Origin: Nitrospirae bacterium MYbin3
Lineage (GTDB): Bacteria > Nitrospirota > Thermodesulfovibrionia > Thermodesulfovibrionales > Dissulfurispiraceae
NCBI GenBank assembly: GCA_002753335.1
Contig: PEAD01000004.1
Location: 62,001 to 126,000 of the forward strand
Length of the DNA stretch: 64,000 bases
Reading direction: 5' to 3'
Made by a program: the position numbers and the translations under genes. The notes below the pieces were generated by a model. The model worked only from the letters and a program-made list of their open reading frames with translations, did no database searches and had not been told where the DNA came from. Positions 17,563-58,800 of the stretch are shown one piece after another; positions within the stretch are counted from its first letter, which is position 1, and each line of letters opens with the position of its first letter.

Positions 17563-18642
17563 CTATTTGCCGAACGGGCAGACCGGATACCTGCAGACCT
17601 CACAGTTCAGACATAGCCCTCCATGTCCAAGTTCGGCGAGTTCCATTCTCCCAATATGCTCTCCGGCCAGTATTCTCGGCAGTACAAGGTCAAAAACAGT
17701 TGTTTTGTGGTACATTCCGCAGGCCGGAATGCCCAAGATAGGAATATTCTGTGTGGTCTCATTTTCAGTGTTAAGGTATGCCACCATAAACATAGCTCCC
17801 GGCAGCACTGCGGAGCCATAAGTGATATCAGTCGCACCGAGCTTTCTTATCGCAAACCTTGTAACATCGTCAGGATCCACCGACATTCCACCGGTTGTAA
17901 TAAGCAGGTCTGCACCGGCATCCAAAAGCTCTCTGAGCCTTGTTTCTATATGTTCCTGATCGTCCGGAGCGTAGTATGTGCCGATTATTTCTCCTCCGAA
18001 CTCATCGATTTTCTTGGTTATGACCGGGGCAAAGGCATCCTGAATTTTTCCGTAATACACCTCGTTGCCTGTTATTACAACGCCGGTTTTGGGTTTTCGC
18101 AGGGCTTTTACATTTATGACTCCGCCCGGCACTTTGCATAAATGCTCCGCCTGCTCAACAACCTCTTTTTTAGCTATCAAGGGTATTGCGCGGGTGCCTG
18201 CAACCAACTGTCCTTTTTTTACTACGGTGTTGTCATGTGTGGTTGCGCACATTATGTCTCCGAGCATATTGAAATCCAGCAGGGCGGCTTCGTTGATTTT
18301 TAGCAGCCCATCCCTGTCTGCGATTATGTTTATCTTGCCCTCGCGGGGAGAACCCTGCATGCATACGCCTTCGCCCATCAACGCGTTTGCAAGCCTGTAT
18401 GCGGCTTCATCCTCATGAAGTTCATCCTCAGAAACGCTTAGAACGTAAAGATGCTCCTTTCCAAGCCTCTGCAGTCGGCAGACATCTTCAGCCTGTATGA
18501 TATGCCCTTTTCTGAAGGCGCAGCCTTTGAACTCGCCTGTCCTGATCTCGGTTATGTCATGGGCCAGAACCGTTCCCACCGCATCGCTTACAGGCAGTGT
18601 CTTCATTCCTGAATGATGTTTTTCATTTAGGGTTTCACACAT
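17563..18642 (-). CDS. Molybdopterin-binding protein (MoeA/MoCF_biosynth domain) with C-terminal Cys cluster
   Basis: LAHDIT, ITGNEV, TGGMSVDPDD, GIPAC and C-terminal GGLCLNCEVCRYPVCPFGK. Confidence 0.85.
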   Translation of the reverse strand: MCETLNEKHHSGMKTLPVSDAVGTVLAHDITEIRTGEFKGCAFRKGHIIQAEDVCRLQRLGKEHLYVLSVSEDELHEDEAAYRLANALMGEGVCMQGSPREGKINIIADRDGLLKINEAALLDFNMLGDIMCATTHDNTVVKKGQLVAGTRAIPLIAKKEVVEQAEHLCKVPGGVINVKALRKPKTGVVITGNEVYYGKIQDAFAPVITKKIDEFGGEIIGTYYAPDDQEHIETRLRELLDAGADLLITTGGMSVDPDDVTRFAIRKLGATDITYGSAVLPGAMFMVAYLNTENETTQNIPILGIPACGMYHKTTVFDLVLPRILAGEHIGRMELAELGHGGLCLNCEVCRYPVCPFGK

Positions 18643-18663
18643 AGATACCTCCGGATATATTCA

Positions 18664-19020
18664 TCATTTGCCAGAAAATATTTTCTCGAATCTCTCGTCA
18701 ACCATTTCTCGTATCCTATTTTCGAGCGACTCGTATTTTTTTATGAAATGCCTTGCATCATCGGTAAGCGTTGCGCCTCCTCCGTTTTTGCCGCCTGTCC
18801 TGCAGTCAACAAGCTTTATCCCAAGCCGTTCTTCCATAGCCTTTATATGGCTCCACGCCTTTCTGTAAGAGATATTCACATCTTTGGCCGCCTGATTTAC
18901 CGAGCCGTAGCGGTCTATGGCTTCGAGCAAAAACCTGCGGCCTCTGCCGAATACCGGCTCTCCGTTAACCTCAAGCCAGAGCTTTGATTTGATTTCTATA
19001 TCGTTATGACTTTTCTGCAT
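18664..19020 (-). CDS. modE: ModE-family winged-helix regulator (DNA-binding domain only)
   Basis: FGRGRRFLLEAI...GSVNQAAK...ISYRKAW...GGKNGGGATLT. Confidence 0.88.
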   Translation of the reverse strand: MQKSHNDIEIKSKLWLEVNGEPVFGRGRRFLLEAIDRYGSVNQAAKDVNISYRKAWSHIKAMEERLGIKLVDCRTGGKNGGGATLTDDARHFIKKYESLENRIREMVDERFEKIFSGK

Positions 19021-19024
19021 AGCG
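19002..19024. promoter_or_regulatory. Putative ModE box overlapping the modE start codon
   Basis: Imperfect palindrome CGTTATG-ACTTTTCTG-CATAGCG resembling CGTTAT-N~12-ATAACG ModE operators. Confidence 0.55.
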
Positions 19025-19028
19025 CATT

Positions 19029-19640
19029 TTAATAAAAAAGTTTTTGCTCATTAGAGATAACTTCGTAATAACCTTCCCCGCCGCACTGTTTGCAGACCGT
19101 TTTCCCATTGTGGGTTGTTTCTCTCTTGTCCTGAACATGCTCTCCGCAGATTTCGCAACGGATACGGCTTAAAGGCCGTCCGGGCATATCTTCCGGTTTG
19201 ATATTCACCGTCACTTCCATGCAATCGAAAAGCTCTTTGTCGGACATTATTTTATACGCCTCGGTTTGTGCCGCGTATTTGTTTTCTATCTCAGGAAAAT
19301 ATTTTTTTGCCTCTTCTTTTGAATCTTCTTTTGCGAGAACTCGCACAGCCTTATTTGTTTTTATATTCACAAATGTCGCAGCCATCTTGCCGTAATCCAT
19401 AAACTTCATTGTCCTGTGGCCGAGGCTGCATCCTGTGACAGACTGGACTGCGTCCGTAGCGCATCTGTCCATCTCCACAAAAACGATTATGCTTTTTCTG
19501 TCTTTGCCTTTTGGGTCTTCAACTCCTGCCAATTTAAGGCCGAGCATAGACATCCTGACACCTAGCACCTGTCCGGGGCATAGGTGGCCGTGAATTCTTA
19601 CAGATTCGTCGAGCAGGGCTTGAAAATCCAATGGATTCAT
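19029..19640 (-). CDS. FmdE-family protein with C-terminal Zn finger
   Basis: HGHLCPGQVLG, DRCATDAVQ, GKMAATF, CEICGE...CKQC. Confidence 0.9.
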   Translation of the reverse strand: MNPLDFQALLDESVRIHGHLCPGQVLGVRMSMLGLKLAGVEDPKGKDRKSIIVFVEMDRCATDAVQSVTGCSLGHRTMKFMDYGKMAATFVNIKTNKAVRVLAKEDSKEEAKKYFPEIENKYAAQTEAYKIMSDKELFDCMEVTVNIKPEDMPGRPLSRIRCEICGEHVQDKRETTHNGKTVCKQCGGEGYYEVISNEQKLFY

Positions 19641-19683
19641 TGAAATATTATATCTCCGAAAAATGTAAATTTGTTGTTAAGAA

Positions 19684-19710: not shown

Positions 19711-19720
19711 CTAAAAAAAC

Positions 19721-22942: not shown

Positions 22943-22956
22943 CAGTCCTCACCTCC

Positions 22957-23799: not shown

Positions 23800-24117
23800 T
23801 TATTTCACCTCCTTTTTATGGCATACGTAACAGTTTGCTGAGAGGTCAAACGCTTTCTTTCCGTTATGGCATGCGCCGCAAGATGTGGCCTGACGCTTGT
23901 GCGACATCCTCAGGCTCTTGTGTTTCTCCCTGCTTTCAAAAATGGATGGATGGCACTCGGTACAGCTAAACCCCATTGTTTCGACATGGGTATCGTGGTG
24001 GAATGTCACATTGCCTATGTGTTTGACCTCATAGGTAATGTCGCCTCCTCCAACCCTTGCCGAAACAACAGATGCCGCAATTAGAGCCAAAACAACGCTG
24101 ATCAACAGATATCTCAT
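23800..24117 (-). CDS. Periplasmic triheme c7-type cytochrome
   Basis: Signal peptide, FHHDTH, and CTECH, CGACH, CYVCH. Confidence 0.9.
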   Translation of the reverse strand: MRYLLISVVLALIAASVVSARVGGGDITYEVKHIGNVTFHHDTHVETMGFSCTECHPSIFESREKHKSLRMSHKRQATSCGACHNGKKAFDLSANCYVCHKKEVK

Positions 24118-24141
24118 ATGTTTTCTCCTTTTGTCCGGAAT

Positions 24142-24456
24142 CTATTTCTTGTGGCAGATATAGCAATTGCTGCTGACATCAAACGCGTTTTTGCCGTTAT
24201 GGCAAATACCGCAGGCCTTCTTTGACCGCATGTCCGACATCTTGCGCTTTTTTTCGGCATCCCTTTTCATCGCAAATATCGAAGGATGGCAGTCATCGCA
24301 CTTAAAGTTCCTGTCGGTCACATGAGAGTCGTGGCTAAAAGTGACATCTCCCGAATGCTTTACTTTGTAAACGATGTTTCCGCCTCCTACAGATGCTGCA
24401 TAAACAACAGGAACCGAGATAAGAACAGCCAGCACAACCAACAATAATCGTTTCAT
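24142..24456 (-). CDS. Periplasmic triheme c7-type cytochrome (paralog of adjacent gene)
   Basis: Signal peptide, FSHDSH, and CDDCH, CGICH, CYICH; shares VGGG.I.Y.VKH and CHPSIF with its neighbour. Confidence 0.9.
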   Translation of the reverse strand: MKRLLLVVLAVLISVPVVYAASVGGGNIVYKVKHSGDVTFSHDSHVTDRNFKCDDCHPSIFAMKRDAEKKRKMSDMRSKKACGICHNGKNAFDVSSNCYICHKK

Positions 24457-24536
24457 CTTTTTTCACCCCCTTGTTTGGTTTTTGTTTTCACAATCAAAAA
24501 TTAAAAGATATACCGGATTAAGCTGTTTGTCAAATT

Positions 24537-24932
24537 TTAAAAGCCTACGCACTCCGCGTATTCTGGCTCAACTTTTTTTTTGACACCGCATAGGTCCTCA
24601 ATCAAGGAGCTAACTTTATCCAGATTAAACGGTTTTTCCAAAAAAACATCTATGCCTGCTGCAGCCAACTCAGAATTAGTTGAGTCGCAACATGCCGACA
24701 TAAGAATTATTCTGCCATCATAACCTGTTGCTCTTATCTTTTTTGCAGCCTCTATACCGTTAGTCGGCACCATCTTGTAGTCTGTGATTATCACATCAAA
24801 AATAGCCGGGTTCATTGCAGATAATGCGTCTTTAGGTGAACTTACAGAAACAATATTGTGTCCTTTGTTTGACAAGTAATTGCTAAGCATTACTCCAACT
24901 AACGGCTCATCATCAATGACCAGAATCCTCAT
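24537..24932 (-). CDS. Single-domain response regulator (receiver)
   Basis: MRILVIDDE, ITDYKM, LMSA, EKPF; start re-called at the ATGA overlap with the upstream ORF. Confidence 0.85.
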   Translation of the reverse strand: MRILVIDDEPLVGVMLSNYLSNKGHNIVSVSSPKDALSAMNPAIFDVIITDYKMVPTNGIEAAKKIRATGYDGRIILMSACCDSTNSELAAAGIDVFLEKPFNLDKVSSLIEDLCGVKKKVEPEYAECVGF

Positions 24933-25258
24933 GCATCCCCCATGTTTATTGTGATCGTAATCTCCTGATCCCAAAAAATGCCTTTAAGTGGAGAAAGCAG
25001 CCCTTTAACTGTGTTCTGAACAAGCTGTTTCGCAAATTCTCTTTCTATAACAATTTTATTGCCGTTTGAGTAAATGCCCGCAAAATTCTCATCGATGTGG
25101 ACAGTAACAAAATTCGATATATCCCCAAAAGACTTGGCAACAGCCATTACCACATTAGCAATATATTTTTGGGTAAATGCATTAAGCGGAATCTGATTGC
25201 CTTTGCATATCAAGACAGTTTTTATTGTATCGTTTTTTGTGGAAGATGTAGTTATCAT
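24929..25258 (-). CDS. Hypothetical protein, two repeats resembling the MobB C-terminal extension domain
   Basis: KGNQIPLNAFTQKYIANVV and SNGNKIVIEREFAKQLVQNTVKGLLSPLKG; family match from recall, unverified. Confidence 0.55.
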   Translation of the reverse strand: MITTSSTKNDTIKTVLICKGNQIPLNAFTQKYIANVVMAVAKSFGDISNFVTVHIDENFAGIYSNGNKIVIEREFAKQLVQNTVKGLLSPLKGIFWDQEITITINMGDA

Positions 25259-25273
25259 TTTAAATCTAATAGT

Positions 25274-25289
25274 ATCAACTTTTATGCCA
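25274..25289 (-). promoter_or_regulatory. Putative sigma54 -24/-12 promoter (variant -12) for the reductase operon
   Basis: Minus strand TGGCATAAAAGTTGAT (GG-N10-GA); upstream boxes at 25332-25349 and 25421-25438. Confidence 0.5.
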
Positions 25290-25420
25290 TTTGTAGCTTG
25301 TTGAAATATAAAGAATTGACCATGAAGTTGCTGTTACCTTAAATAAACAATAGACATGTCATATTCTCTTAACTATGCTTAGAATAAAAGAAATTCAAAA
25401 TGTGCTTCCGTCAAAAGAAA

Positions 25421-25438
25421 TGTTACGAACAGGTAACA
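25421..25438. promoter_or_regulatory. Palindromic enhancer-like box TGTTAC-N6-GTAACA
   Basis: TGTTACGAACAGGTAACA with perfect arms; related copies at 25332, 31694 and 31787. Confidence 0.6.
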
Positions 25439-27339
25439 CTAATAGATTCGTCTTTCGCCGGTCTATTTTTTACAATATCTTTTTGTTCGTAAACCCCGAC
25501 CTCTGCAGTGAAATAAAAAATGCTGCCGCTTCCTTCATCGCTGTCAACCCAGATGCTTCCTTTCATAAGCTTGACCAGCTCTCTACAGATGCTAAGACCG
25601 AGTCCAGTGCCTCCATACTTCCTTGTCATTGAAGCATCAGCTTGGCTAAAGTTTTCAAATATAATGCAGTGTTTATCGCGTGGAATGCCGATACCCGTGT
25701 CACGCACAGAAAAAAGCAGATCTATAAGCCCGGCCTTCTTGCTCCAATCGCTGTCTTCGCTATTCAGCACAGATACGAATATTTCAATTTTTCCTTGCTC
25801 TGTAAATTTCATCGCATTGGATATAAGATTGGTCATTACCTGTCTAATCCTGTGAGGATCACCCCTAAGTTTTAACGGAACGTCCGGAGCAATATAATAG
25901 TCCAGCGAAAGCCCTTTGTTCCGGGCTTGGGCAGAAAACAGGTGGACGGTTGCCTGAACAATGTCATGCAGGTTAAAGTTTATGGTTTCAAGTTCCAGCC
26001 TGCCCGATTCGACTTTTGAGATATCGAGTATGTCGTTGAGCAGACAAAGGAGTGCTTCGGAGGAAAATCTTACAGTTTCGAGTTGCTTTCGTTGTTGCGC
26101 CGTCAATTCCGTTTCGAGTGTTAGCTCTGTCATGCCCATTATGGCATTCATAGGCGTGCGTATTTCGTGGCTCATGTTGGCGAGGAAACGGCTTTTAGCC
26201 AATGTAGCCTCTTCGGCAATCCGCTTAGCCGCCTTCAACTCTGACTCAGTATCTTTCAGGCGTGTTATGTCTATCAGAGAAACAAGATGCGATGGCTCGC
26301 CCTGCCAATCAAGCGCTACTGAACGCATTTCGATTGTATGTCTGGCGTCTGAAGGAAAAGTGATGACAATTTCCGATTGATCCGAAAAAACGAAGCTTTT
26401 TCCGATAACCTCTTCTACGCCTTGTTTAAAAAGTGTTTCTGCAGCAGGATTCATGTAGCGCACAATATTTTTCCTGTCCACAATTACTATGCCAATCGGC
26501 ATATTAGATATCATCGAGATTTTTTCGACTATGTGCTCCTCATCCATCATGGTCTCATGTTTCTTGACAGCAGCTACCATCATATTGAACTTGCCTGATA
26601 GTTCGGCAACCTCGTCTTGTCCCTTAAGTTCCAATAAACTGTCCCGTCCTCCTTCTGCGACTTCGGACATTTTGCGCAGCAATCCCATTATCGGATTGCC
26701 GACCAGCCGGTTGAAAAGTGTCATGATCAGCGTTGTTGAGATGAAAAAGATCACTATTACTGCGGCTATCATAATCTTCCTGTTTTTGGATATTAGTGCA
26801 TCCGCGTCTTTCATCGTGACGGCCACATATATTTTCCCCACGAAACGATTGCCTACCGAATGGCATTTGCGGCATTCATCACTGTTCTTGATAAGCCTGA
26901 TATTCAATAGCGTCCTCTCCCCATTGTCTTTTGTGAACAGAGCTGAGAGGTTTTCTTTTCCGGGCAGCTTTCCGTTATGGCATTTACGGCAGTTCTCGGC
27001 GCTGCTTATGTCTGCGACATTTCCTATTTCGGCATTATTTTTTGCCCATTTGATTTTCCCGTCCAGAGACATTATCTTTATGTCTTCGATCATATGCTCT
27101 TGGCCTACGGCGTTTACTGCAGCATTCATCCGCCCTTTCTCATCTTTCAGCATGGCCTCAACAAGGCTTTTCTCCAGAACATCTATTATTCTTTTCGACT
27201 CATTTTCGGCCATCTCCAAAAGGCCTTTTTCGGTATATGAGAGGGACAGGTGCAAAAACAGGCTCAATACCGCGAAAAGTCCCAGCGCTGAAGCGACAGC
27301 TATTTTAAAGCCTATGCTTTTGGTGAATTTTAATATCAT
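25423..27339 (-). CDS. Sensor histidine kinase with di-heme-c periplasmic sensor, HAMP and PAS
   Basis: Two TM helices flank two CRKCH motifs; FLANMSHEIRTP, NLISNAMKFT, DTGIG, GGTGLGL. Confidence 0.9.
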   Translation of the reverse strand: MILKFTKSIGFKIAVASALGLFAVLSLFLHLSLSYTEKGLLEMAENESKRIIDVLEKSLVEAMLKDEKGRMNAAVNAVGQEHMIEDIKIMSLDGKIKWAKNNAEIGNVADISSAENCRKCHNGKLPGKENLSALFTKDNGERTLLNIRLIKNSDECRKCHSVGNRFVGKIYVAVTMKDADALISKNRKIMIAAVIVIFFISTTLIMTLFNRLVGNPIMGLLRKMSEVAEGGRDSLLELKGQDEVAELSGKFNMMVAAVKKHETMMDEEHIVEKISMISNMPIGIVIVDRKNIVRYMNPAAETLFKQGVEEVIGKSFVFSDQSEIVITFPSDARHTIEMRSVALDWQGEPSHLVSLIDITRLKDTESELKAAKRIAEEATLAKSRFLANMSHEIRTPMNAIMGMTELTLETELTAQQRKQLETVRFSSEALLCLLNDILDISKVESGRLELETINFNLHDIVQATVHLFSAQARNKGLSLDYYIAPDVPLKLRGDPHRIRQVMTNLISNAMKFTEQGKIEIFVSVLNSEDSDWSKKAGLIDLLFSVRDTGIGIPRDKHCIIFENFSQADASMTRKYGGTGLGLSICRELVKLMKGSIWVDSDEGSGSIFYFTAEVGVYEQKDIVKNRPAKDESISVTCS

Positions 27340-27346
27340 AAGAGGC

Positions 27347-29029
27347 TCATATGAGAGCGTTATAATCCTGCAATTTATCCGGTTGTTCCGCAGGCATTGT
27401 TAATGTTACACATGTACCCTTGCCCGGTGCGCTGTCGAACTTTATCTTGCCGCCATGACCTTCTACAATGCCGTTGGCGATAGACAGTCCTAGACCTGTA
27501 TGAGCGTTCTTTGACTTAGTGGTGAAAAATGGGTCAAGAACCTTGCTCAGGTCTGTTTCTTCAATTCCATAGCCTGTATCGGCAAAGCTTAGTTCTACAA
27601 AATTATCCTTTATCTGTTGGAAGCTCACGGTAATAATCCCTCCATCGGGCATGGCCTCTATCGCATTTTCGATGATATTGAAAAAAACCTGCCCCATATG
27701 CTTCGTGTCCACTTTTATCATAGGCAGGCCCTTGCCGAATTGCCGGACAACCTTAATATGTTTCAATTTTAGCTGACTATCCACGAGCATCAACACATCT
27801 TCAACGAACAATGCAAGATCGATCTTTTCAAGCTTAAAAGATATCTGTCGTGAGAAAACTCTTAAGCCCTTAACTATTCTGTCGGCACGGAAAACCGCGC
27901 CTTTTACTTGGTTGATCACATCAAGAAGAGGTGGATTGTCCGATAATGAAGGTTTTAAGAACTCTACGCCCTGCTGTATTATCATAAGAGGATTTTTTAT
28001 TTCGTGGGCGACTGCGGTTGCCATTGTGCCTAAGGATGCCATTTTTTCAGAATGTATCAACTGTTTTTGAAGCTCAAGTATTTCTCGCAAATCCCTCGCT
28101 ACAAAAACTATGCCGTTGACTTTTTTTAATCCCTCATTATCTTTGTACATTACGGAAGCATGAAGGCTCACAGGTATCTTTTCCCCTTGTTTGGTTTTGA
28201 ATGATGTCTGGTGGTCTCTGATAAACCCATCCTCTATCAATTTAAGCAATGTGCCTGTGAGAAATGCCTCATCAACAAGAAGCATGTCTAAAGCAAGTCC
28301 TTTCAGCTCATCTTCCTTGTATCCGAGCATTAAGCATAGCGCACGATTAACAGTGTTTATCGTAGCATCAGGATTGACCACAACAAGCGCGTCAGCCATA
28401 GAAAAGATTATGCTGTCCGTATAATCTTTCGCTTCTGTTAGTAGCGCTTCCGCTTTTCTGCGTTTATTCGCGTAATACACAAATAGTTGTATGATGATTG
28501 TCACCATGCAAATAAAAACAACAGTTGCGGTAGCCATAAAAATATTGATGTTTAAGACAGCCTTATTGTAATTGTTTTTATGTGCATCTAATAGAAGCAC
28601 GATTTTTTCATTCATTTGGGATGAACTTTTTTCAAGTTCGTTCAGACGCTTTCTGCCTTCATCCAGCCTTTTTTCGAGAAACATTGAATTGATAGAGGTA
28701 AGTTTTGCGTAATAGTCAATGTATTGCTGTTTCAGCTTGTCTGCTTCAGCAGGATGTTGTTTGGAAAGTTGCTCAAAGCTGTCAAACAAGATAAGCGAGC
28801 GTTTAGCAGCATGAATGGCATACTTGTCATCAAGGGCCAGAATGCCGCTTTGTACGGTACTGTTGATTTCTTTTATGTCACTCTCGATACCGTGCAGCAG
28901 CCTGCTTGTCTCGGTTATGCGATGCAGTTGGTAATTATGGAAGAAAAATATCCCTCCAAAGGAGGAAAAAACAAAAAAGGCTATCAACACAAGCGGCAGG
29001 ATTATTATAGCTTTCTCTGAAAGTTTCAT
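27347..29029 (-). CDS. Membrane PAS sensor histidine kinase (NtrB-like)
   Basis: Two TM helices, PAS, AHEIKNPL, NAIEAM, DPFFTTK, GLGL. Confidence 0.9.
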   Translation of the reverse strand: MKLSEKAIIILPLVLIAFFVFSSFGGIFFFHNYQLHRITETSRLLHGIESDIKEINSTVQSGILALDDKYAIHAAKRSLILFDSFEQLSKQHPAEADKLKQQYIDYYAKLTSINSMFLEKRLDEGRKRLNELEKSSSQMNEKIVLLLDAHKNNYNKAVLNINIFMATATVVFICMVTIIIQLFVYYANKRRKAEALLTEAKDYTDSIIFSMADALVVVNPDATINTVNRALCLMLGYKEDELKGLALDMLLVDEAFLTGTLLKLIEDGFIRDHQTSFKTKQGEKIPVSLHASVMYKDNEGLKKVNGIVFVARDLREILELQKQLIHSEKMASLGTMATAVAHEIKNPLMIIQQGVEFLKPSLSDNPPLLDVINQVKGAVFRADRIVKGLRVFSRQISFKLEKIDLALFVEDVLMLVDSQLKLKHIKVVRQFGKGLPMIKVDTKHMGQVFFNIIENAIEAMPDGGIITVSFQQIKDNFVELSFADTGYGIEETDLSKVLDPFFTTKSKNAHTGLGLSIANGIVEGHGGKIKFDSAPGKGTCVTLTMPAEQPDKLQDYNALI

Positions 29030-29904
29030 TTGGCCTTTTCTTTTTTTGCGGTAATAAATCCAAACTCTTCGACAACCTTCTGGCCTTGGGCGCTCAGAAA
29101 AATATTGATATACTCGTTGACTCGTGTATAGCCCCTTATGTAAACAAGATTAAGTTCGCGGATAATTGGATATTTCCCTGACAATACGGTCTCTTTTGTT
29201 GCCGCGATACCATCTATAGTCAACATTTTTATTGGCATGCCTTGTCTTATTAACGACTGGGCTGTGCCCAGAGAAACATAGCCTATTGTATTCGGCATTC
29301 CTCCCACCAATGTCGCTGCTTCTAGGTTAGAGCCTATTTCATAAGCATCTCTGGTGATAATTTCATCCGCTTTGAAAGATGTTTTGTTGTTGGATTTAGA
29401 AAAATGCCTGAGTCCGCTGTAGTTTTCAAACAACTCTAGAGTTGATCTGCCCGGTTGCTTTGACACAATAACCACCGGCATGTTCCATGTGGTTATTAAA
29501 CCCCAGTTTTTAATGCGCCCGTTAAAGAGGCCTATCAAAGCATCTTTCTTTATGTCGGTTAGCGGATTATTTTTGCTCACAATTATGGCAACGGCATCGT
29601 AGCCAACTGTAGTTTGCTTTAGTCTCACTTTTTCTTCAGGCTTTAAAGCTCTCGAAACCATACCTATATCAGAGGCTCCGGAAAGCCCGTCTTTTATTCC
29701 TTTTGCAGACCCGCCTCCGCGAACTACAACTTTTTCTCCGAATTCCTTTGTATGTATTTCAGCAATCTTTTCTGCCAGCGGTTGTATGGTGCTTGCGCCG
29801 GATATCCATAAAGTCTGTTTCGCCGCTCCCCCATATGCAACAGGCAGTACAAAAAAGAAAGGCAACGAAAAAAGTAGCACTATAAACAGGCTTTTTTTAG
29901 TCAT
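29026..29904 (-). CDS. PstS-like phosphate/oxyanion-binding periplasmic protein
   Basis: SGASTIQP, GGGSAKGI, DIGMVSR, GYDAVAI, IGYVS, SGKYPIIR. Confidence 0.8.
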   Translation of the reverse strand: MTKKSLFIVLLFSLPFFFVLPVAYGGAAKQTLWISGASTIQPLAEKIAEIHTKEFGEKVVVRGGGSAKGIKDGLSGASDIGMVSRALKPEEKVRLKQTTVGYDAVAIIVSKNNPLTDIKKDALIGLFNGRIKNWGLITTWNMPVVIVSKQPGRSTLELFENYSGLRHFSKSNNKTSFKADEIITRDAYEIGSNLEAATLVGGMPNTIGYVSLGTAQSLIRQGMPIKMLTIDGIAATKETVLSGKYPIIRELNLVYIRGYTRVNEYINIFLSAQGQKVVEEFGFITAKKEKAK

Positions 29905-31544
29905 GGTAACCTGTCCAGAGAGTTTCTTATTTTCAATAGCAGGCCAGCGGGATCAACAGGCTTTGATAAAAAATCAAAGCTTTCATGTAAGACTCCCTTT
30001 GTTCTGATTATGCTGTCCGTATATCCGCTCATATATAACACTCTCATGTCAGGCCTAATGAGCTTAATATCTTCGTAGGCGTCTATTCCGTTTTTAAACG
30101 GCATTATCACATCCAGAAGGAGAAGAGAAATCTTATCAGGATTTTTCTTGAACTTTTCAACCGCTTCCATTCCGTTTTCGGCCTCTATTGTTTTGTACCC
30201 ATATTCCTGAAGATGCATTTTGATTATTTCTCTGACCTGCTGGTCATCTTCCGCTATCAGTATCGTCTCTCCACCGCCTAAAGGCATAGACTTAGCAGGC
30301 TCGTTTGTTTCTTTATAATCAAGTTTTTTTGTTAGCGGCAGATATATTCTGAAAGTTGTACCCATCCCCAATTCGCTGTAAACATTAATGTTACCGTCAT
30401 GCTGTTTGATTATTCCGTATGCCATAGCCAAACCAAGCCCTGTTCCTTTGCCGACTTCCTTTGTGGTAAAAAACGGTTCAAAAATGTTTTCCCTTGTTTT
30501 TATGTCCATTCCTTTTCCTGTGTCCGACACCGTCAGCACCGCATAGTTGCCTACACTTTCGAAAAGATGGGCCTCAGCATAGCATCTGTCAATAGTCACA
30601 ACAGCTGTTTCTATGAGCAGATGTCCTCCTTCAGGCATTGCATCCCTGGCATTTGCAACAAGGTTCATAACCACCTGCTCTATCTGACCTGCATCAACCT
30701 TTACCATTATATCGCTGCTGAATAAATCTATTTTTAGTTCTATGTCCTCTTCTATAAGCCTGCGGAGCATCTTTTTCATGTTGGTGATTATTCTGTTTAA
30801 ATCTTGTGTTTGTGGAATTATTACCTGTTGTCTGCTAAAGGCAAGAAGCCCATGCGTCAGTTCAGCCGCCCGCTTTGCACTGGCAAGTATCTCTTCTATG
30901 AACCCTATTGTTTCTTCATCGTCTTTAATCTTCTTCTTTGCCATCACCCCGAAGCCGATAATTGCTTGGAGTATATTATTGAAATCATGCGCCACCCCAC
31001 CGGCAAGTGTCCCTACGGCCTCCATTTTATGAGCCTGCCGGAGTTGGTCTTCGAGTTTTTTCTTTTCTGTAATATCGATAACTATTTCTATTGCTGAAGT
31101 AACTTTGCCGCTATGGTCTTTAGATAGTGGGTATGCTTTTGTTTCTACATATACAGGATTCCCTTTCTGATCATAATGGGTATGTATGGCTTTTTTGTGT
31201 TTTCCTGTTTCAAATACATGTTTCACCGTGCAGGGATGGGATGATGCGTATTCATAGCAGGGTTTAGGGAAATGATGTGATATCTCATAACAATGCTTGC
31301 CGATTATATTCTCGATTGGTATCTTGACCATGTTCGAATAAGACCTGTTAGCGCACATAATCTTAAAATCACGGTCTATGATTATAAATCCCTCATCTAT
31401 GGTCTCGAGAATATGTTTTATTAACTCCTTCATATCCTCAAAGTTCTCGGAGATGGAAATGAAAAAACTATGGGGCGTTGCGCAGTCCTGCTTTGGCAAA
31501 TTTGGATTCAAATATGAATCGCCTTTCAACTCTTTAGTAATCAT
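29901..31544 (-). CDS. Cytoplasmic hybrid histidine kinase (Cys/His-rich PAS-HisKA-HATPase-REC)
   Basis: [40 protein letters not shown]-terminal receiver. Confidence 0.9.
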
Positions 31545-31636
31545 TAAGCAACCTCACATTTTTTCAAGATAGCATGATAATAAGACCTGCCCTAAGCAAT
31601 GCCGTTCTTTAAACAAAAAAATCTCTTGAAATATAA

Positions 31637-31652
31637 TGCAATTTGGATGCCG
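31637..31652 (-). promoter_or_regulatory. Sigma54 -24/-12 promoter for the kinase/PstS-like operon
   Basis: Minus strand CGGCATCCAAATTGCA (GG-N10-GC); upstream TGTTAC-N6-GAAAC boxes at 31694-31711 and 31787-31804. Confidence 0.7.
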
Positions 31653-31936
31653 CTTGTAACATTATGATTTTGTTGGATTTATGTTTGCCGATGTGTTACA
31701 TAAATGAAACATGTAAGGCTGAAAATAGTCATTGTTTTTAGGTGAATATCAGTGTGTAGATTGGTATTTATAAAGAAAATAGGTAGTGTTACGTTTGCGA
31801 AACTGTCACAAAAGGGCGGGAAGCTTTTTAAAAGGCTAAAGGCAAGGCATGTTGTACATGAAATTGCGGTAATTAATCAACGGCACTAGCTTTTAAACGA
31901 TGAGCTTCCGGATTATCCGATTTGTACGAATTGTTT

Positions 31937-44460: not shown

Positions 44461-44521
44461 ATTAATTCACTTCTCCTTCTGTAATTTTCTGTTTCGGTTT
44501 CAGGTTTGGGGAAAGTAGATT

Positions 44522-44791
44522 CTACTTCCTGATCTGCAGCCGCTCCATGACGATGTCATAACGCTTTCTGTCTGATTCCTTCAGATAGCCGATAAGTCTT
44601 TTCCTTTGTGCTACGAGCGTAAGAAGCCCTCTTCTGGAATGGTGGTCCTTCTTGTGGGTCTTAAAATGCTCGGTAAGATAGGTTATCCTCTCTGTGAGAA
44701 GAGCTATCTGCACCTCAGGCGATCCGGTATCCTGCTCATGTATCTTGTATGAGGAGATTATCTCCTTCTTCTTTGCCAAGTTCAGAGCCAT
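44522..44791 (-). CDS. rpsO: 30S ribosomal protein S15
   Basis: [24 protein letters not shown]; 89 aa. Confidence 0.98.
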
Positions 44792-44993
44792 GTTTCTTCA
44801 CCTCCTTAAAATATTTTCTTATTTACGGTCTGTTTCACAGCAAAACCATTCTTTATATTTGGATTTCTGCGAATTACCCTCTATAAAACAGAGTGTTTAG
44901 ATTAGCACATGCTTTTTGCTTCTGTAAAGGCTTCGAATTGCCTCTTTTTTCAACTTAGCATTATCTGGTTTCGCTAAGCGACAGAGGCATCCG

Positions 44994-46331
44994 CTACCCG
45001 ATCCCGTAGGCGTTCATCTTTTCCCACAGAGTTTTCCTGCTGATGCCGAGCAGTTCGGCGGCGCGTGTTTTATTATTGTTCGTTGAGTTCAATACTCTGA
45101 TGATATATTCTTTCTCGGCCTCTGCAGCAACGACCGAAAGGGCATGTTTTTTTTCTCCGACCGCTTTTGCCGAAATACCCGGCGGCAGGTCGTCCAAGCC
45201 TATCACCTCCGACGGGCAGAGCGTTACGCACCTTTCGATGATGTTTTCGAGCTCCCTCACATTGCCGGGGTAGTCGTACTTTAACAAGGCCTCCACCGCA
45301 TCTTTTGAAAGACGAACATTTCTCGAAGACCTTGAGTTGTACCGTTCAAGGAAAAAACTGACAAAAAGCGGCGCATCCTCTTTGCGCTCGCGCAAAGCAG
45401 GCATAGTTATTGGTATTACATTAAGCCGGTAATAAAGGTCTTCCCTGAAAGCGCCGCGCTTTACCTCCTCTTCGAGGTTCTTGTTGGTGGCTGCCAATAC
45501 TCTGACATCCGCATTTATCGTTTCTACGCCCCCAACCCTTTCAAAGGTTTTTTCCTGTATTATGCGCAGCAGTTTCGCCTGTGTAGAAGTGGGGATGTCG
45601 CCTATCTCATCCAGAAATATCGTGCCGCCATTTGCAAGCTCAAACCTGCCGGGCTTTCTTTTCATTGCTCCGGTGAAAGCGCCTTTTTCATAACCGAACA
45701 GTTCGCTCTCGATAAGGCTTTCAGGAAGAGCTGCACAGTTGACCTTAATTAAGGGTTTGTCTTTTCTCTTGCTCTGGTAATGAATAGTGGTTGCTACGAG
45801 TTCCTTGCCTGTACCGCTCTCTCCCATAATCAGAACCGTAGAATCCGAGGCAGAGACCCTTTCTATCAAAGCAAAGACCTTTTTTATAGCCGCGCTTTCG
45901 CCTATTATGTTCGGAAAACCATAGCAGGTTGTAAGGTCTCTTTTAAGCCTTATATTCTCCTCTTTCAGCTTTTTGACCTCCAGAGCCCTTTCAACAAGCA
46001 GCAGGAATTCATCGAGAGAAAAAGGCTTGGTTATGTAATCGAATGCTCCGAGCCGCATGGCTTCAACCGCATCTTTTATGGTGCCGAAGGCGGTCATAAC
46101 AATTACTTGCGTTGTGTTTGTCTTCATCAATTCTTTCAGAATGTCCAGACCGTTCATGTCCGGAAGCTTCACATCAGTGACCACCAAGGCAAAGTCTGAT
46201 TCGCCAAAGGCCTTAACAGCCTCGGCCCCGTTTTCAAAGGAGGAAACCGCATAACCTGCCGCAATCAGGGCGTCCTCAATAGTAATCCTCATTATCTTTT
46301 CGTCTTCTATAAGCAGGATCGTTTCTTTCAT
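44994..46331 (-). CDS. Sigma54-dependent response regulator (NtrC/AioR type)
   Basis: REC, GESGTGKE, ESELFG, GAFTGA, DLYYRLNV, PGNVREL, Fis-type HTH. Confidence 0.95.
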   Translation of the reverse strand: MKETILLIEDEKIMRITIEDALIAAGYAVSSFENGAEAVKAFGESDFALVVTDVKLPDMNGLDILKELMKTNTTQVIVMTAFGTIKDAVEAMRLGAFDYITKPFSLDEFLLLVERALEVKKLKEENIRLKRDLTTCYGFPNIIGESAAIKKVFALIERVSASDSTVLIMGESGTGKELVATTIHYQSKRKDKPLIKVNCAALPESLIESELFGYEKGAFTGAMKRKPGRFELANGGTIFLDEIGDIPTSTQAKLLRIIQEKTFERVGGVETINADVRVLAATNKNLEEEVKRGAFREDLYYRLNVIPITMPALRERKEDAPLFVSFFLERYNSRSSRNVRLSKDAVEALLKYDYPGNVRELENIIERCVTLCPSEVIGLDDLPPGISAKAVGEKKHALSVVAAEAEKEYIIRVLNSTNNNKTRAAELLGISRKTLWEKMNAYGIG

Positions 46332-47788
46332 AAAGTTTTTTTCACCCCGTTTATCGGAAAGCTGACGGTAAAAACAGAACCCTCGCCGGGCTCGCTCTTT
46401 GCGGAAATGTCTCCATTGTAGTTTCTTACAATCTCATAGGTCAACCAAAGGCCGAGCCCTGTGCCTTCTCCTGTCGGTTTGGTCGTGTAGAACGGGTCGA
46501 ATATCCTTCCTATGTTCTCAGCCTCTATTCCGCAGCCGTTATCTATAACCTCTATTTTAACGGCAGCTCCGGCCTCATACCCCCGCACCTTAAGGACTCC
46601 GCCATCCGGCATGGCATGAAGCGCGTTAATGAACAGATTGAGAAGCATCTGCTGGAAATCATGCATATCGACGAATATAAACAGATTCTCGCTAATCTCG
46701 GCTGAAAACTCAACCTCGGCTTTTTTGAATTTGTACTCAAGGAAGGCGTAAACACTATCTACAGCGCTCCTTACATTAACCTGAACCGGAGAGTGGTCCG
46801 TCTTTTTCGACATCCACAAGAGCTTGTTCACAGTATTTTCTATCCTGTCGAGGCCCTCGTTTATCAGCGAGAGATATTTCTCCCTGAACTCAGGATTGTC
46901 GCCGTTTTGCCTGAGCATCTGAATGCAGTTAAACAGGCCGCCGAGCGGATTGTTTATCTCGTGGGCAACGCCTGACGCTAGTATGCCTATGGATGCGAGC
47001 TTTTCGGACTGAACGAGTTTTTCATGTGTCTTTCTGATCTCTTCATTTGCCTGTTTGATCCTTTCGATCATGCTGTTGAACCGCTCTCCGAGAACAGCAA
47101 GTTCGTCGTCCCCCTTTATCTCGACCTTTGCATCAAGGTAATCCGCGCCGGTCTTTTCCATTGTGTTGGCAAGCTGCGTTATAGGGCTTATAAAACGCCT
47201 GCTTAAAAAGAGAATTATTACGAAGCCGAACCCTATCAAAAATAGCGTCAGCAGGAATATTTTTTTTACCGTAGAGATGATTTCATGCTCGACCTTTTCG
47301 AGGGAAATTCCGAACTTGAGCGTGCCCCAGCGTTTTTTGCCTATAGAAAGAGGCACTCCGAAATCGAGGGCGTCGTGATCATTTTTTGAAAATTGCTGTA
47401 CCAAGGTATTATCGGCCTTAATATATTTTTGTGTTAAGGGATCCGTGTACACCTTGCCGTACTCGGTAATATCGTTGTGCGAAACCACTCTGCCCTCTTC
47501 GTCCAAAATAGCTATATACAAAAGATCGACATCTTTCCTGTTAAAAACCTCAAGGATATAGTTGTCAATAAGTCCGCCCTCCTCTACAAGTCCGAGCCTT
47601 TCATATATCAGGTCATTTATTATGGGTATGGCAAGAGTTTCTCCGAGCAGTTGCCCTTCCCGTTCGACTTCGGCACGCAGGATGTTCTTTTCCCTTTGAA
47701 CCGACGCGTATCCCATTATGGTCATGAATACGATAATCGCAATAGTTGTGATAAAAACAAATTTTGATTGTAGGCTTAGTCCTTTCAT
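46328..47788 (-). CDS. HAMP sensor histidine kinase
   Basis: Two TM helices, HAMP, AHEINNPL, DPFYTTK, GTGLGL; coupled to both neighbours by ATGA overlaps. Confidence 0.92.
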   Translation of the reverse strand: MKGLSLQSKFVFITTIAIIVFMTIMGYASVQREKNILRAEVEREGQLLGETLAIPIINDLIYERLGLVEEGGLIDNYILEVFNRKDVDLLYIAILDEEGRVVSHNDITEYGKVYTDPLTQKYIKADNTLVQQFSKNDHDALDFGVPLSIGKKRWGTLKFGISLEKVEHEIISTVKKIFLLTLFLIGFGFVIILFLSRRFISPITQLANTMEKTGADYLDAKVEIKGDDELAVLGERFNSMIERIKQANEEIRKTHEKLVQSEKLASIGILASGVAHEINNPLGGLFNCIQMLRQNGDNPEFREKYLSLINEGLDRIENTVNKLLWMSKKTDHSPVQVNVRSAVDSVYAFLEYKFKKAEVEFSAEISENLFIFVDMHDFQQMLLNLFINALHAMPDGGVLKVRGYEAGAAVKIEVIDNGCGIEAENIGRIFDPFYTTKPTGEGTGLGLWLTYEIVRNYNGDISAKSEPGEGSVFTVSFPINGVKKTL

Positions 47789-49509
47789 AGTGTTATTGGG
47801 GGATGACAGCCTTTTCCGCAGGTCTGCGGCACTGCGTTTATCTTTGCGCGTATCCCCTCATAATCCTTGTCAGAGGCTTCTGTAAAACCGTTTCTAATGT
47901 CGTCATCGAACTTTCTTAAAATTTTTTCATGGGCCGGATTCTTAGGATCCAGCTCCAGCAACGCCTTCTTTATATTTTCGGTCACAGAAGAAGCAGTACC
48001 CGTATTTGCGGTAATCGGTCCTATCGGTATAATCTCGGATTCTGCCACTACCTCAATTCCCAGCTTTATATATTTCTTAACCACCGAATCCCTTACAGCT
48101 CCGGCATTATACTGTCCTTTGAGCACCGCTTTTACAACACTATCATGATAATCAAAGTTCGCGTAATTCCCGAGATCGCTTAGATGTATGCCCGAGTTCG
48201 CGAAAAGATACCTTGCCATAAGGTTGCCGGATGTTGATTTCGATGCGGCAAAAGCTACGCTCTTTCCTCTTAACTGGGAGATTTCTTTGAGCGGCGACCC
48301 TTTCTTTCTTATGATAACGCTCCGGTAGGTAGCTGTGCCGTCAGCGCCCTTAGGCTTTAAAATGCTGACAGCACCGAACTTTGAGTGGGCTTCAAGGTAT
48401 GTAAGCGGACCGAGGAGGGCTATGTCTATTTCCCTGCTGCCGATGGCATTCACCGTCTCTTCATAGTTTTTCTTTATCACCAGCTCATAGGCATAAGGCG
48501 TCTTTTCCGAGAGGTAATCGAGCAGAGGCTGGTACTTCTCATAAAGAATGCGCGGGTTGTCGCGCGGGATAACGCCGAAATATATGGTCTGTTTGCCCTT
48601 CTCATTTTTAGCAACAGTTTGGCCGGACGCAACGGCCCGCTCCATCTTTCTAATAGAGTCGTAGGCTTTATCGGATATCTGCACAAAGCCGTCTATCATC
48701 ATCGCATCCAGTATCTGCCTGCCTTTGGCAGACTTGTTCATATTCAGAAAAGCGTCTTTTATCTTTTTCTTCAAGGCAGGGTCTATGTCTTTGGTAACAA
48801 CAATAGGCGGGATGCCGAAGGGTTCGGAGCGTTTTATTACTTTGGTTTGCGATGCGTATGGAGAGCCTTTTTTATACATGTATTTGTAAACAATGCTGTC
48901 CACGGCCGCAGCGTCCACAACTTTTTTTGCGACCAGCTCGACCGATTTGTTGTGGCTGTAGCTGTACATATGCTTTTTAAAGAACTTGCCCGAAGTATGT
49001 CCCATACCCTTTAACATGTATTCGGGATATAGCTTTCCGGTATTTGATTTGGGGTCGGTGAAGGCAAAAGTCTTGCCCTTCAACTCAGTGAACGATCCCA
49101 TAGGACTGTCTTTATGGACGATTATGTAAGAGTGGTATTCGGCCTTGCCGTTTACGCTCGGCGCGGCTATGAGTTCGACCCCGAACTGCTCGCGGTTTTT
49201 AACATACGGCGCGGAGCAGATAAACGCAACCTTGACCTTGCCTGTTTCGAGCAAAGAGTCCATCTCTTCGTATGTCCTCCTGTGCACCATCTGCACCGGC
49301 TGCTTTATCTGCTCGCCGACATAATCGATTATCTCCTGATAGTATTTGACAGCATCGACAGGGGTTATCATAGAGGCGACGCCGATTTTGACAGAGCTTG
49401 CGGGTTGCGAGAAAGCCACATGAGGGTTGCAGATTAAAAGGAGCAAGATCAGCAGATACAATAACAAGTAGTTCCTGCAAGAGGATACGATTCCCATCAT
49501 TCGCTTCAT
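47785..49509 (-). CDS. Tandem two-domain PhnD/AioX-like periplasmic oxyanion-binding protein
   Basis: Signal peptide; two PhnD-like repeats ([14 protein letters not shown] / [14 protein letters not shown]); domain 1 has AFICSAPY. Confidence 0.8.
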
Positions 49510-50564
49510 TCCAATTCAATCCTGAAATAAATCTTACGGAAATGAAGCGCCACATTAACCAGCCCTATCAATACAGGCACTTCGACAAGCGGGCCTATGA
49601 CCGCGGCAAAGGCCGCGCCTGAATTGATTCCGAATACAGCAACAGCAACGGCAATAGCGAGTTCAAAGTTATTGCTCGCGGCAGTAAATGACAGTGTGGC
49701 GGTTTTTGGATAGTCCGCTCCGATTTTTCTTCCAAGATAAAACGACACAAGAAACATAACTACAAAATAAATAAGAAGAGGAATAGCTATGCGGACTACA
49801 TCAAGCGGAAGCCTGACAATGTAATTGCCTTTAAGCGAGAACATGACAAGGATCGTGAAGAGCAGGAAGATGAGAGTAATCGGGCTTATCTTAGGGATAA
49901 AAACCTTCTCATACCACTCACGGCCTTTAACCTTGAGCAGGCTGAAGCGCGTCAGCATCCCGGCGATAAAGGGAATGCCGAGGTAGATGAAGACGCTCTC
50001 TGCTATCTGTCCCATCGTAATATCCACCGCAACACCTTTAAGGCCGAACCATGCGGGCAGGACGGTTATGAAGACATAGGAATAAACCGAGAAAAATAGC
50101 ACCTGAAAGATGGAGTTGAACGCTACAAGTCCTGCTGCGTATTCGGAATCGCCGCAGGCGAGTTCATTCCAGACAATGACCATAGCGATGCAGCGGGCAA
50201 GGCCGATCATGATAAGGCCCACCATGTATTCGGGATAATCACGGAGGAAGAAGACGGCAAGAAAGAACATCAAAACCGGGCCAATGATCCAGTTCTGGAT
50301 TAGCGATAATCCCAGCACTTTTTTGTTTTTGAAGACCTCGCTAAGCTCCTCGTACTTGACCTTGGCAAGAGGCGGATACATCATCAGAATAAGACCGATG
50401 GCAATAGGAATATTGGTTGTTCCGATTTGGAATTGATTGATGAACGCCTCGGTGCCGGGAATGAAATAGCCGGTTCCCACGCCGGCCGCCATCGCCGCAA
50501 ATATCCATAGCGTCAAATAGCGGTCGAGAAATGAGAGTTTTTTTGAAGTTTGATTCATGGTCAA
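49506..50564 (-). CDS. acr3: Arsenite efflux transporter, ACR3 family
   Basis: [52 protein letters not shown]. Confidence 0.95.
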
Positions 50565-50688
50565 TTTCTCCTAAATATAGCTTTTAGACGGCAATTCTCA
50601 TTACGTACGCTTGTGTTGCTGCATCTTATTTCAATGCATCACCGTATAAAATCGTATCACAAAAAGCACAAAATGCTAAAATGTTTTT

Positions 50689-51354
50689 ATGGAAAAACTG
50701 ATCTTGCGTCCGCAACCAAACAGAGAAAGCTTTTACAGATGGGCGAACGGTCTTGCGCTGATCACGATTTTCTATAACATGATTGAAGGAATTATTTCAG
50801 TATGGTTTGGATATGAAGACGGCACGGTCGCGCTCTTCGGCTTTGGTGTTGACTCGTTCGTTGAGGTCATATCAGGGGTCGGCATCTGGCACATGATACG
50901 CAGGATGAGAAAAAATGGCAGAGAAGATCATGATGCGTTTGAAAAGACCGCGCTTAAGGTTACAGGCACAGCATTTTATATCCTGACCGCAGGATTAACC
51001 GCCACAGCCGCGCTCAATCTCTACAAAGGCTCAAAACCGGAAACTACTTTCTGGGGCATTGTTGTGGCAGGCGTTTCGATACTCTCCATGTGGCTGCTGA
51101 TTCATTACAAACTGAAGATCGGCAGACAGTTTAATTCTCAGGCCTTGATCGCGGATGCGAATTGCACAAGGGCCTGCATGTACCTTTCGGTGGTGCTCCT
51201 CGCCGCAAGCATAGGCTACGAACTTACCGGCTTGGGCATGCTCGACTCAATCGGCGCAATCGGCATAGCAGCTTTATCTTTCAAAGAAGGGCGCGAGGCG
51301 TTCGATAAGGCTAAGGGCAAGGAATGTTGCTGTGCGGGGAACTGCGGAAATTAG
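50689..51354 (+). CDS. Cation diffusion facilitator-like transporter (membrane domain only)
   Basis: YNMIEG, ALFGFGVDSFVE, ALIADA, LDS...KEGREA; C-terminal ECCCAGNC. Confidence 0.8.
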   Translation: MEKLILRPQPNRESFYRWANGLALITIFYNMIEGIISVWFGYEDGTVALFGFGVDSFVEVISGVGIWHMIRRMRKNGREDHDAFEKTALKVTGTAFYILTAGLTATAALNLYKGSKPETTFWGIVVAGVSILSMWLLIHYKLKIGRQFNSQALIADANCTRACMYLSVVLLAASIGYELTGLGMLDSIGAIGIAALSFKEGREAFDKAKGKECCCAGNCGN

Positions 51355-51389
51355 TCAACGACCCTCACCTTGGCAATAAAAGACTGCTT

Positions 51390-52250
51390 TCATCTGCCTG
51401 TTTTTACCGATGCAGTTTCCTCAACAAACTCCGAAATCGAAGCGCTTGCTTTGCTTCCGGATTTCGCTTTAAGTTTAACTCCTCTTGATTTTGTGCTTAT
51501 ATCCTTGGCGCTTGTCTTTACCTGATAAACACTGCCCTCGTCCTGCAAATCTATTTCTCCCAGCGACGCGGTGCTTGCATACACAATCACATTTTCTTCA
51601 CCGAAGGGCGGGCTTACCTCGAGTTCAAATCTATCGTTGCCGGAAGGTATTTCATAAACCACGCCGCCGTTGAAATAGTTGTCTGTCCTATAAGGATTGG
51701 GCAGCAACTGCACCATGCTTCCCTTAACATCTTTATACAGCACACGGGCATAGAACGGTTTGTTGCCCTTTATATAAACTTTTATTTTCTCGTTTTTTGT
51801 ATATTCTTTCTTGTCGGTCCAGAGCTTTACTGTCAAAGGCGCGGAAGGATCATCTGTCGCCTGCTCTGCTTTTGATATTTTTGCTATCGCTTTTTCGTCA
51901 GGCAAAACCTCTGCCTTGATCTTTACTTTGTAGCAGTCACCTGTTGAGGCCTCCTTGTACCAGCCTTTTTCTATCTCCTGAATTACTTTGACCGTGGCGT
52001 TAGCGTAAGCCGATACAAGGTCTTTCTCAAGCTCCATGTCTTTGATATGGGTCTCGCTCTTAATGTAGGTAACGGCAAATTCTGTAGCCTTTCGTTTTGC
52101 ATCTGCCATAGCCAACTGCTCGGTCTGCTTTCTGGATTTGTCATCGCCCATACATGCATATCCTTCAGATTCGGTTATGGTGGATTGTGCAGCGTATAGA
52201 TTGGTGGAGGACAAAAGAAAAATAAAAAAACATACAAGAAGATAGGCCAT
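51390..52250 (-). CDS. Exported protein with C-terminal DUF4384-like domain
   Basis: Signal peptide; LWTDKKEY..E.I, QLLPNPY, V.PPFG.E motifs. Confidence 0.65.
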   Translation of the reverse strand: MAYLLVCFFIFLLSSTNLYAAQSTITESEGYACMGDDKSRKQTEQLAMADAKRKATEFAVTYIKSETHIKDMELEKDLVSAYANATVKVIQEIEKGWYKEASTGDCYKVKIKAEVLPDEKAIAKISKAEQATDDPSAPLTVKLWTDKKEYTKNEKIKVYIKGNKPFYARVLYKDVKGSMVQLLPNPYRTDNYFNGGVVYEIPSGNDRFELEVSPPFGEENVIVYASTASLGEIDLQDEGSVYQVKTSAKDISTKSRGVKLKAKSGSKASASISEFVEETASVKTGR

Positions 52251-58750: not shown

Positions 58751-58800
58751 AGGAGGAAATTTATGAAAAAAACAAAACAAGCCAAGTCTCTGTTTTTCAA

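Follow-up and report, generated by a model that had tools for sequence, protein, structure and literature searches.

Several arsenic-related signalling systems that consist of a receptor, a kinase and a regulator (X–S–R) have been described. The AioXSR and ArxXSR systems of Rhizobium NT-26 and Alkalilimnicola MLHE-1 combine a cysteine-containing receptor pocket with an AtoC-type activator and an RpoN promoter that has an upstream site (PMC5908839). The pocket of the AioX family comprises Y88, C106, Y131, S161, S163, H192 and D210, and its Cys is common to the arsenite-binding AioX and ArxX and the arsenate-binding ArrX (Badilla et al., PMC5908839). The same source reports that ArrX, from the ArrXSR system of Chrysiogenes arsenatis, has a shorter loop than AioX, binds arsenate with a Kd of 1 µM and does not bind arsenite. 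In Melioribacter roseus, an ArrTSR system lies upstream of ttr, and the transcripts of ttrA and psrA increase with arsenate, only psrA significantly (Gavrilov et al., PMC5492636). Here we examine a related module in a 64,000-nucleotide stretch of Nitrospirae bacterium MYbin3 (assembly GCA_002753335.1, contig PEAD01000004.1, positions 62,001–126,000; hereafter the window), in which genes for a two-domain PhnD-like receptor, a histidine kinase and a sigma-54 activator directly follow the arsenite efflux gene acr3.

On sequence grounds, the module is a variant of ArrXSR/ArrTSR that would work as these systems do, and it likely detects periplasmic arsenate through the first receptor domain. The secreted receptor of 574 aa (47785..49509; features lie on the minus strand of the window unless noted) has a predicted signal peptide, two PF12974 stretches (domains 1 and 2) and a CxxxCH tail. 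The membrane kinase (46328..47788) contains sCache_3_2, HAMP, HisKA and HATPase domains, and the AtoC/NtrC-type activator (44994..46331) contains a receiver, Sigma54_activat with GAFTGA and HTH_8, with a recognition helix that is kept among cognate activators. The original prediction had acr3 and these three genes chained by ATGA overlaps, and all three junctions (acr3–receptor, receptor–kinase and kinase–activator) do overlap in-frame; two extra Met codons occur at receptor positions 4 and 5. As originally noted, no ABC permease gene adjoins the module, and neither does an ATPase gene; the neighbours of the receptor there are the kinase and activator. We therefore rejected a role in ABC transport and retain the reading as arsenic-related X–S–R signalling; the receptor does pass TIGR03431 (282 versus 261), but that score is a sum over its two domains.

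Among 300 other genomes of the class, 65 encode the two-domain receptor, with short contig-end pieces not counted. Forty of these 65 genomes were fetched at ~20 kb and, with the window and L004, provide the 42 loci discussed below, alongside the best 80 of 169 metagenome loci. Relatives are labelled Nitrospirota/Thermodesulfovibrionales. The receptor–kinase order is found at 42/42 loci and the activator at 41/42 (the remaining one is a contig end), with ATGA junctions between receptor and kinase at 29/42 and between kinase and activator at 19/41.

The module shares with ArrXSR the X–S–R order, the pocket residues, the short loop and, in many relatives, linkage to ArrA. A single-domain receptor would have ~300 aa, and the 574-aa, two-domain, tailed protein therefore makes the module a variant: it adds a second PhnD-like domain and the CxxxCH tail. 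The activator is of the AtoC/sigma-54 type, whereas ArrR is CitB-like in C. arsenatis and AtoC-like in epsilonproteobacteria (PMC5908839), and the predicted target is TtrA-like and 20 kb away. AioXSR/ArxXSR have the same Cys pocket, activator type and promoter architecture, but the module lacks the AioX loop insert and adjoining aio or arx genes, and its linked ArrA-like enzymes carry a reductase motif. In ArrTSR, too, a PhnD-like receptor is encoded together with a kinase and a regulator, next to ars genes and a Ttr-type enzyme (PMC5492636); the likeness is one of description, and the portions of that account consulted here describe neither a two-domain receptor nor a binding site. The Ttr-type enzymes of Anaeromyxobacter PSR-1 and Geobacter OR-1 (cited in PMC11462812) are proposed to respire As(V) and, like the target here, belong to the TtrA clade, a likeness by clade and not by identity figures; the window operon has c7 cytochromes in place of a TtrC anchor. 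PhnD/PtxB ABC binding proteins have the same fold and the pocket Gly and Thr of domain 2, but differ in their adjoining permease and ATPase and, for PtxB, in a cap Tyr. Finally, TtrSR has its PhnD-like domain fused to the kinase, whereas receptor and kinase are separate genes here, and the NF040750 scores are only 41.5 and 92.4 bits against 750. The literature covered, which took in few subscription journals and excluded supplements, contains no description of the two-domain receptor, the CxxxCH tail or the enhancer site discussed below.

The receptor domains and the CxxxCH tail

Domain 1 (residues ~40–290; 48640..49392) has a predicted ArrX-type pocket formed by Y80, C98, Y125, S155, T157, H186 and D204. 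All seven AioX/ArxX/ArrX pocket positions are matched, with T157 standing for Ser, and Cys98 (codon 49216–49218) lies opposite AioX Cys106, as the original prediction required. Among 62 sequences, Y80, C98, Y125, S155 and H186 are invariant (62/62), position 157 is T or S, and position 204 is Glu in 52. The accompanying description of the domain as AioX-like and arsenite-binding fared less well. Since the arsenate-binding ArrX shares the Cys, Cys98 is no pointer to arsenite, and by sequence domain 1 is nearer ArrX (PDB 6X6B, E 7e-46) than AioX (160 versus 143 bits); a 62-sequence profile of the domain gives 221 bits for ArrX and 178 for AioX. The alignment with 6X6B is ungapped and collinear over the loop region. 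Domain 1 has the short loop of ArrX and not the long hydrophobic 53–61 loop of AioX; compared with 6ESV, the three-residue insert is missing.

Domain 2 (residues ~308–558; 47836..48588) is 30% identical to domain 1, and its best PDB match is PtxB (E 3e-20). The AFICSAPY and ALLGPLTY motifs reported earlier for domains 1 and 2 are present, with Cys98 of the former aligned with Gly367 of the latter. The predicted PhnD/PtxB-like pocket of domain 2 has the PhnD-type Gly367 and Thr426, lacks the PtxB cap Tyr and is accompanied by extra conserved basic residues (R316, R320 and R473).

The C-terminal Cys-x3-Cys-His motif (C564–H569; 47803..47820), which the original prediction overlooked, is present in 120 of the 120 homologues listed (860 were found) and at 42/42 loci. 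It may serve in haem binding, metal binding or a disulphide; CXXXCH has been counted as a haem motif (PMC11434368). The tail is found in 19 of 150 distant representatives, and the pocket His is kept in 10 of these 19 and in 109 of the 131 untailed proteins. By these counts, the tail outlasts the pocket in distant relatives. In the receptor structure model (mean pLDDT 85.8, pTM 0.57), neither the tail (pLDDT about 58–60) nor the relative placement of the domains is fixed, and a complex prediction with the kinase periplasmic domain scored 0.01.

Receptors with domain 1 only (G231) or domain 2 only (G220) occur with related kinases and activators; a reading of these split forms as the ancestral state was not adopted. 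The G220 locus (L095:9226–13117) encodes a domain-2-only receptor with the CxxxCH tail and a His-to-Gln change in the pocket, a kinase and an activator, and enhancer sites there precede cytochrome, Fe–S and PhsA-like genes. A domain-2-like PF12974 stretch is also found at the C-terminus of the chemoreceptors P0166, P0176, P0192, P0199 and P0210, following the signalling domain.

Predicted target promoters and linked molybdoenzymes

Relatives have, after the activator gene, two TGTTAC-N6-GTAACA sites separated by ~90 bp, with a sigma-54 element 58 bp past the second; an enhancer spacer of 5 bp was tried and rejected when nothing was found. A matrix trained on 57 sites of relatives, with the window excluded, identifies five sites of at least 14 bits in 2.93 Mb, three of which fall in the window, the two highest-scoring ones among them. 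The four sites of the window make up two promoters with the spacing seen in relatives. Predicted target promoter 2 (25273..25438) has enhancers at 25421–25438 and 25332–25349, with matrix scores of 22.0 (the best in the genome) and 14.7, and a sigma-54 element at 25273–25290 (score 20.3) whose −12 reads GA. Predicted target promoter 1 (31636..31804) has enhancers at 31787–31804 and 31694–31711 (12.6 and 21.9) and a −24/−12 element at 31636–31653 with CGG in place of TGG; it shares 76% identity with the promoter that immediately follows the activator at the sister locus, that of a same-genus genome, G198. A strict enhancer-plus-promoter pattern occurs in 39/65 module genomes and 13/235 others, compared with 9 genomes for a reversed control. 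In four of those 13, a contig end truncates the kinase or activator, and six belong to one genus (g26). In G244, G210 and G279, the motif is found ahead of ttrB/ttrA-like genes that do not share a contig with the module.

Promoter 2 is followed by a TtrA-like molybdoenzyme operon (17563–25258). The first part (23800..25258) holds a conserved 109-aa gene (24929–25258), a single receiver gene and two c7-type cytochrome genes (24142–24456 and 23800–24117); the 109-aa gene has no Pfam match and recurs in module-linked arr, ttr and phs operons. Next come a TtrB-like Fe–S subunit (22957–23799), a TtrA-like Tat molybdoenzyme of 1073 aa (19721–22942) and fmdE-family, modE-like and moeA-like genes (17563..19640) in common with the arr operon of G198. 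The operon departs from enterobacterial TtrABC, with an NF011567 score of 450 bits for TtrA, below the 1750 cut-off, and no TtrC anchor: it contains no NrfD-type gene. The TtrA-like protein is 77–83% identical to enzymes encoded immediately after the module in L048, L057 and L062, and a PDB search with it returned no close structure. We predict that this enzyme is a non-Arr arsenate reductase; a paddy-soil study likewise took ttrA homologues as arsenate reductases, while cautioning that their substrate is difficult to foresee (PMC11462812). A predicted cognate molybdoenzyme thus follows a predicted RpoN promoter and activator site, displaced by ~13–20 kb in the window. The original prediction had placed the target outside the window, and this is not supported. 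Its statement that arr, aio and arx genes are missing from the window is literally true, but it left the TtrA-like operon unlinked.

Comparison with G198 indicates how this operon is related to arr. There, arrA, arrB, arrD and a ferredoxin gene come after the same promoter and 109-aa gene, and the same fmdE, modE-like and moeA-like genes are next. DNA identity between the window and G198 is 75% over 24951–26005, 82% over 24527–24577 and 82.6% over 15070–19683, and these flanking identities imply that window positions 19684–24526 fill the slot of arrABD-fdx. A receptor tree that retains all 42 rows pairs the window receptor with the Arr-linked receptor of G198 as sisters (support 100/100; 86% identity), and the target type switches many times across the tree.

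A molybdoenzyme is linked to the module at 34 of 40 genome loci: ArrA at 16, TtrA-like at nine, PhsA-like at seven and a second TtrA-like clade at two. One of the nine TtrA-like enzymes is on another contig behind the same motif, and one is known from its B subunit only. Two of the remaining loci have only Fe–S and NrfD genes in view and four have no target, most of these at a contig end. The metagenome loci, many of them on short contigs, have ArrA in 16 cases, TtrA-like in five and PhsA-like in two. The RGRY motif of ArrA (PMC6549141) is present in 25 of 27 ArrA-like ORFs of the fetched loci. An Arx-type oxidase was rejected as a target. Genome-wide, ArrA (20), TtrA-like (13) or PhsA-like (10) enzymes are found in 42/65 module genomes and 35/235 others, and two of them occur together only in G223, versus 7.9 expected under shuffling, which amounts to near mutual exclusion. 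Each of the three enzyme types is found clustered with ars genes. A close TtrA orthologue in G152 is divergent from acr3–metallophosphoesterase–arsR, and G208 has the order arsR–receptor–kinase–activator–ttrBA.

Several further observations concern these loci. A PhsA-like molybdoenzyme with a small cytochrome c is located behind the same enhancer at 7/40 loci (L047:10751–13078, L114 and L045, for example), and in G021 a PhsA-like gene directly follows an ars operon; it is a candidate third type of arsenate reductase. In L051 and L046, the module adjoins another PhnD-like protein and its HD-domain partner, located in L051 behind the enhancer, a possible cyclic-nucleotide output. The third-ranked enhancer-like site of the source genome (G000:C1:34657; 16.5 bits) is single and located between divergent genes, with a sigma-54-like element present. 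The genes behind promoter 1 (25423..31544) encode a PAS kinase–receiver (29901–31544), a PstS-like binding protein (29026–29904) and two kinases (27347–29029 and 25423–27339). Most of the ~13-kb block between promoter 1 and the activator is on another contig in G198, and a RelB/YafQ toxin–antitoxin pair (31937–32463) lies at the break between promoter 1 and this block.

The position of acr3

The acr3 gene (49506..50564; TIGR00832 470 bits, cut-off 283; likely start ATG 50558) is divergent from a CDF-family transporter gene (50689..51354, plus strand). The original prediction of an operon built with the efflux pump rested on the acr3–receptor overlap. ATGA overlaps are frequent in the source genome (186 of 1628 co-directional ORF pairs in a crude ORF set), and the overlap is therefore weak evidence for coupling by itself. 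Among the loci examined, acr3 is directly upstream of the receptor at 1/42 genome loci, the window only, and at 0/80 metagenome loci, a uniqueness that the original prediction had itself named as counting against it, and we rejected acr3 as a conserved part of the module. The gene upstream of the receptor varies freely and in L046 has a −4 overlap although it is unrelated. Within ~9 kb, acr3 is found at 5/40 loci, and core ars genes are found at 8/40.

The order in G198 suggests how the junction arose. There, a divergent CDF gene is followed by arsR, acr3, a thioredoxin-like gene, arsP, ~14 kb of other genes and then the module, and Acr3 is 92% identical to that of the window. The window lacks both the arsR that sits between the CDF gene and acr3 and the ~14 kb, and the acr3 DNA homology extends no further than 49523, immediately short of the overlap. 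Taken together, these features are most simply explained if the overlap is a deletion junction within an arsenic island. By these comparisons, the overlap confirms an arsenic context and does not represent a conserved design; acr3 is likely a remnant of an arsR–acr3–trx–arsP operon heading the same island. With arsR and the ~14 kb deleted, the acr3 promoter would probably read through into the module. Inspection of the arsR upstream regions by eye yielded no operator that could be sought at acr3, and a scan of 44400–51500 returned 15 sigma-70 promoter-like sequences versus 9.4 expected and 12 terminator-like sequences versus 7.9 expected.

Across the source genome (G000; 93.7% complete), tblastn detected no arrA, arsA, arsD or arsP and only weak matches to an ArsM-like methyltransferase. 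Three ArsR-family matches lie on other contigs; the two whose surroundings were listed do not adjoin ars genes. An integrase-family ORF next to tRNA-Leu(CAA) at 57965–58887 of the window is a possible remnant of an integrated element.

Proposed mechanism, alternatives and implications

We consider it probable that arsenate is bound by domain 1, that the receptor signals to the kinase, and that the phosphorylated activator opens both promoters and induces a soluble periplasmic TtrAB-like arsenate reductase. We infer every functional step of this scheme. Following the AioXSR paradigm, the liganded receptor would contact the Cache domain of the kinase, which would phosphorylate the activator; this would in turn bind the paired TGTTAC-N6-GTAACA sites, which precede the sigma-54 element by ~150 and 58 bp. 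Both window promoters would then be opened, one of them driving the TtrA-like operon, and the TtrA-like enzyme, supplied with electrons by the c7 cytochromes, would carry out periplasmic As(V) reduction. The most likely role of domain 2 is to bind a second oxyanion or to modulate signalling, and this is the weakest step of the proposal.

A number of observations weigh against this mechanism. The pocket residues do not decide between As(III) and As(V), Asn156 of domain 1 matches AioX and not ArrX, and Foldseek places two AioX structures slightly higher than ArrX. The name of the TtrA-like enzymes refers to tetrathionate, and prediction of their substrate is difficult (PMC11462812); no PF01451 arsC was found in the source genome. 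The enhancer half-site is not unique, as Pseudomonas CbrB uses the same half-sites (PMC6296734), and the source genome has a second activator with a similar recognition helix, together with a symporter–PAS kinase (G000:C21:37192–41492). The strict promoter pattern has no match in the source genome, since both window promoters deviate from it, each by a single base, and a composite scan of this genome gave 11 hits versus 3–6 in shuffles. Three loci fetched from genus g26 (L106–L108), in genomes that lack the module, have similar palindromes spaced differently, at ~33 bp, upstream of a PF03601 (YeiH-like) gene in the vicinity of the atp operon. With the queries used, 23/65 module genomes have none of the three enzymes, and the module is absent from 13/26 TtrA-like genomes. 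The genomes are also related and not independent, so the co-occurrence counts are inflated.

It is unlikely, in our judgement, that the inducer is wholly or partly a sulphur or selenium oxyanion (tetrathionate, thiosulphate, thioarsenate or selenate), probably sensed through domain 2, with TtrA- and PhsA-like targets performing sulphur or selenium chemistry. The best family matches of the targets are TtrA and PhsA, but the 86%-identical receptor of G198 precedes ArrA, and the enzymes exclude one another rather than co-occurring. YeeE or rhodanese genes lie near some loci, whereas clustering with ars genes extends to all three types of enzyme. Domain 2 does offer conserved basic residues and no cap residue, and the domain-2-only receptor of G220 stands with the same kinase and activator types before a PhsA-like gene; against this, the match to the TtrS model is just 41.5 of 750 bits. 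The same circuit and target could also respond to arsenite, bound at Cys98 and possibly at the tail cysteines, in which case the operon would receive feedback from the product of arsenate reduction. We regard this as quite improbable: the absence of the AioX loop insert, the reductase motif of the linked enzymes and the reported failure of ArrX to bind arsenite with the same Cys (PMC5908839) outweigh the invariance of Cys98, the AioX-like Asn156 and Foldseek matches, and the two invariant Cys of the tail.

The model of the original prediction, an arsenite-versus-phosphate comparator in an operon around the efflux pump with its target outside the window, is very improbable and is largely refuted by synteny. 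The acr3–receptor overlap on which it drew is real, and the two discriminating sites of domain 2 are occupied by Gly and Thr of the PhnD type; nevertheless, the acr3 adjacency is confined to the window, the upstream gene varies, the junction is deletion-like and the best enhancer sites of the genome are inside the window. A broader extension of the arsenate mechanism is possible but doubtful. The receptor might be a coincidence detector, in which domain 1 senses arsenate and the domain 2 tail, with covalent haem or a redox-active Cys pair, reports the periplasmic redox state or a second anion, and the enhancer motif might mark three interchangeable clades of respiratory arsenate reductase (ArrA, anchorless TtrA-like and cytochrome-linked PhsA-like) across Thermodesulfovibrionia.

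The acr3 coupling is itself of little importance. Of more consequence is which non-Arr molybdoenzymes respire arsenate, since surveys based on arrA only may miss much arsenic mobilisation (PMC11462812, PMC5492636). In the two sister genomes, whose sensors are 86% identical, one shared promoter is followed at the same position by either arrABD or a ttrBA-like cassette, and this natural swap names both the enzymes and an 18-bp site for testing. Among the 42 module genomes with an identified target, 22 lack ArrA, which suggests that about half would escape arrA screens.

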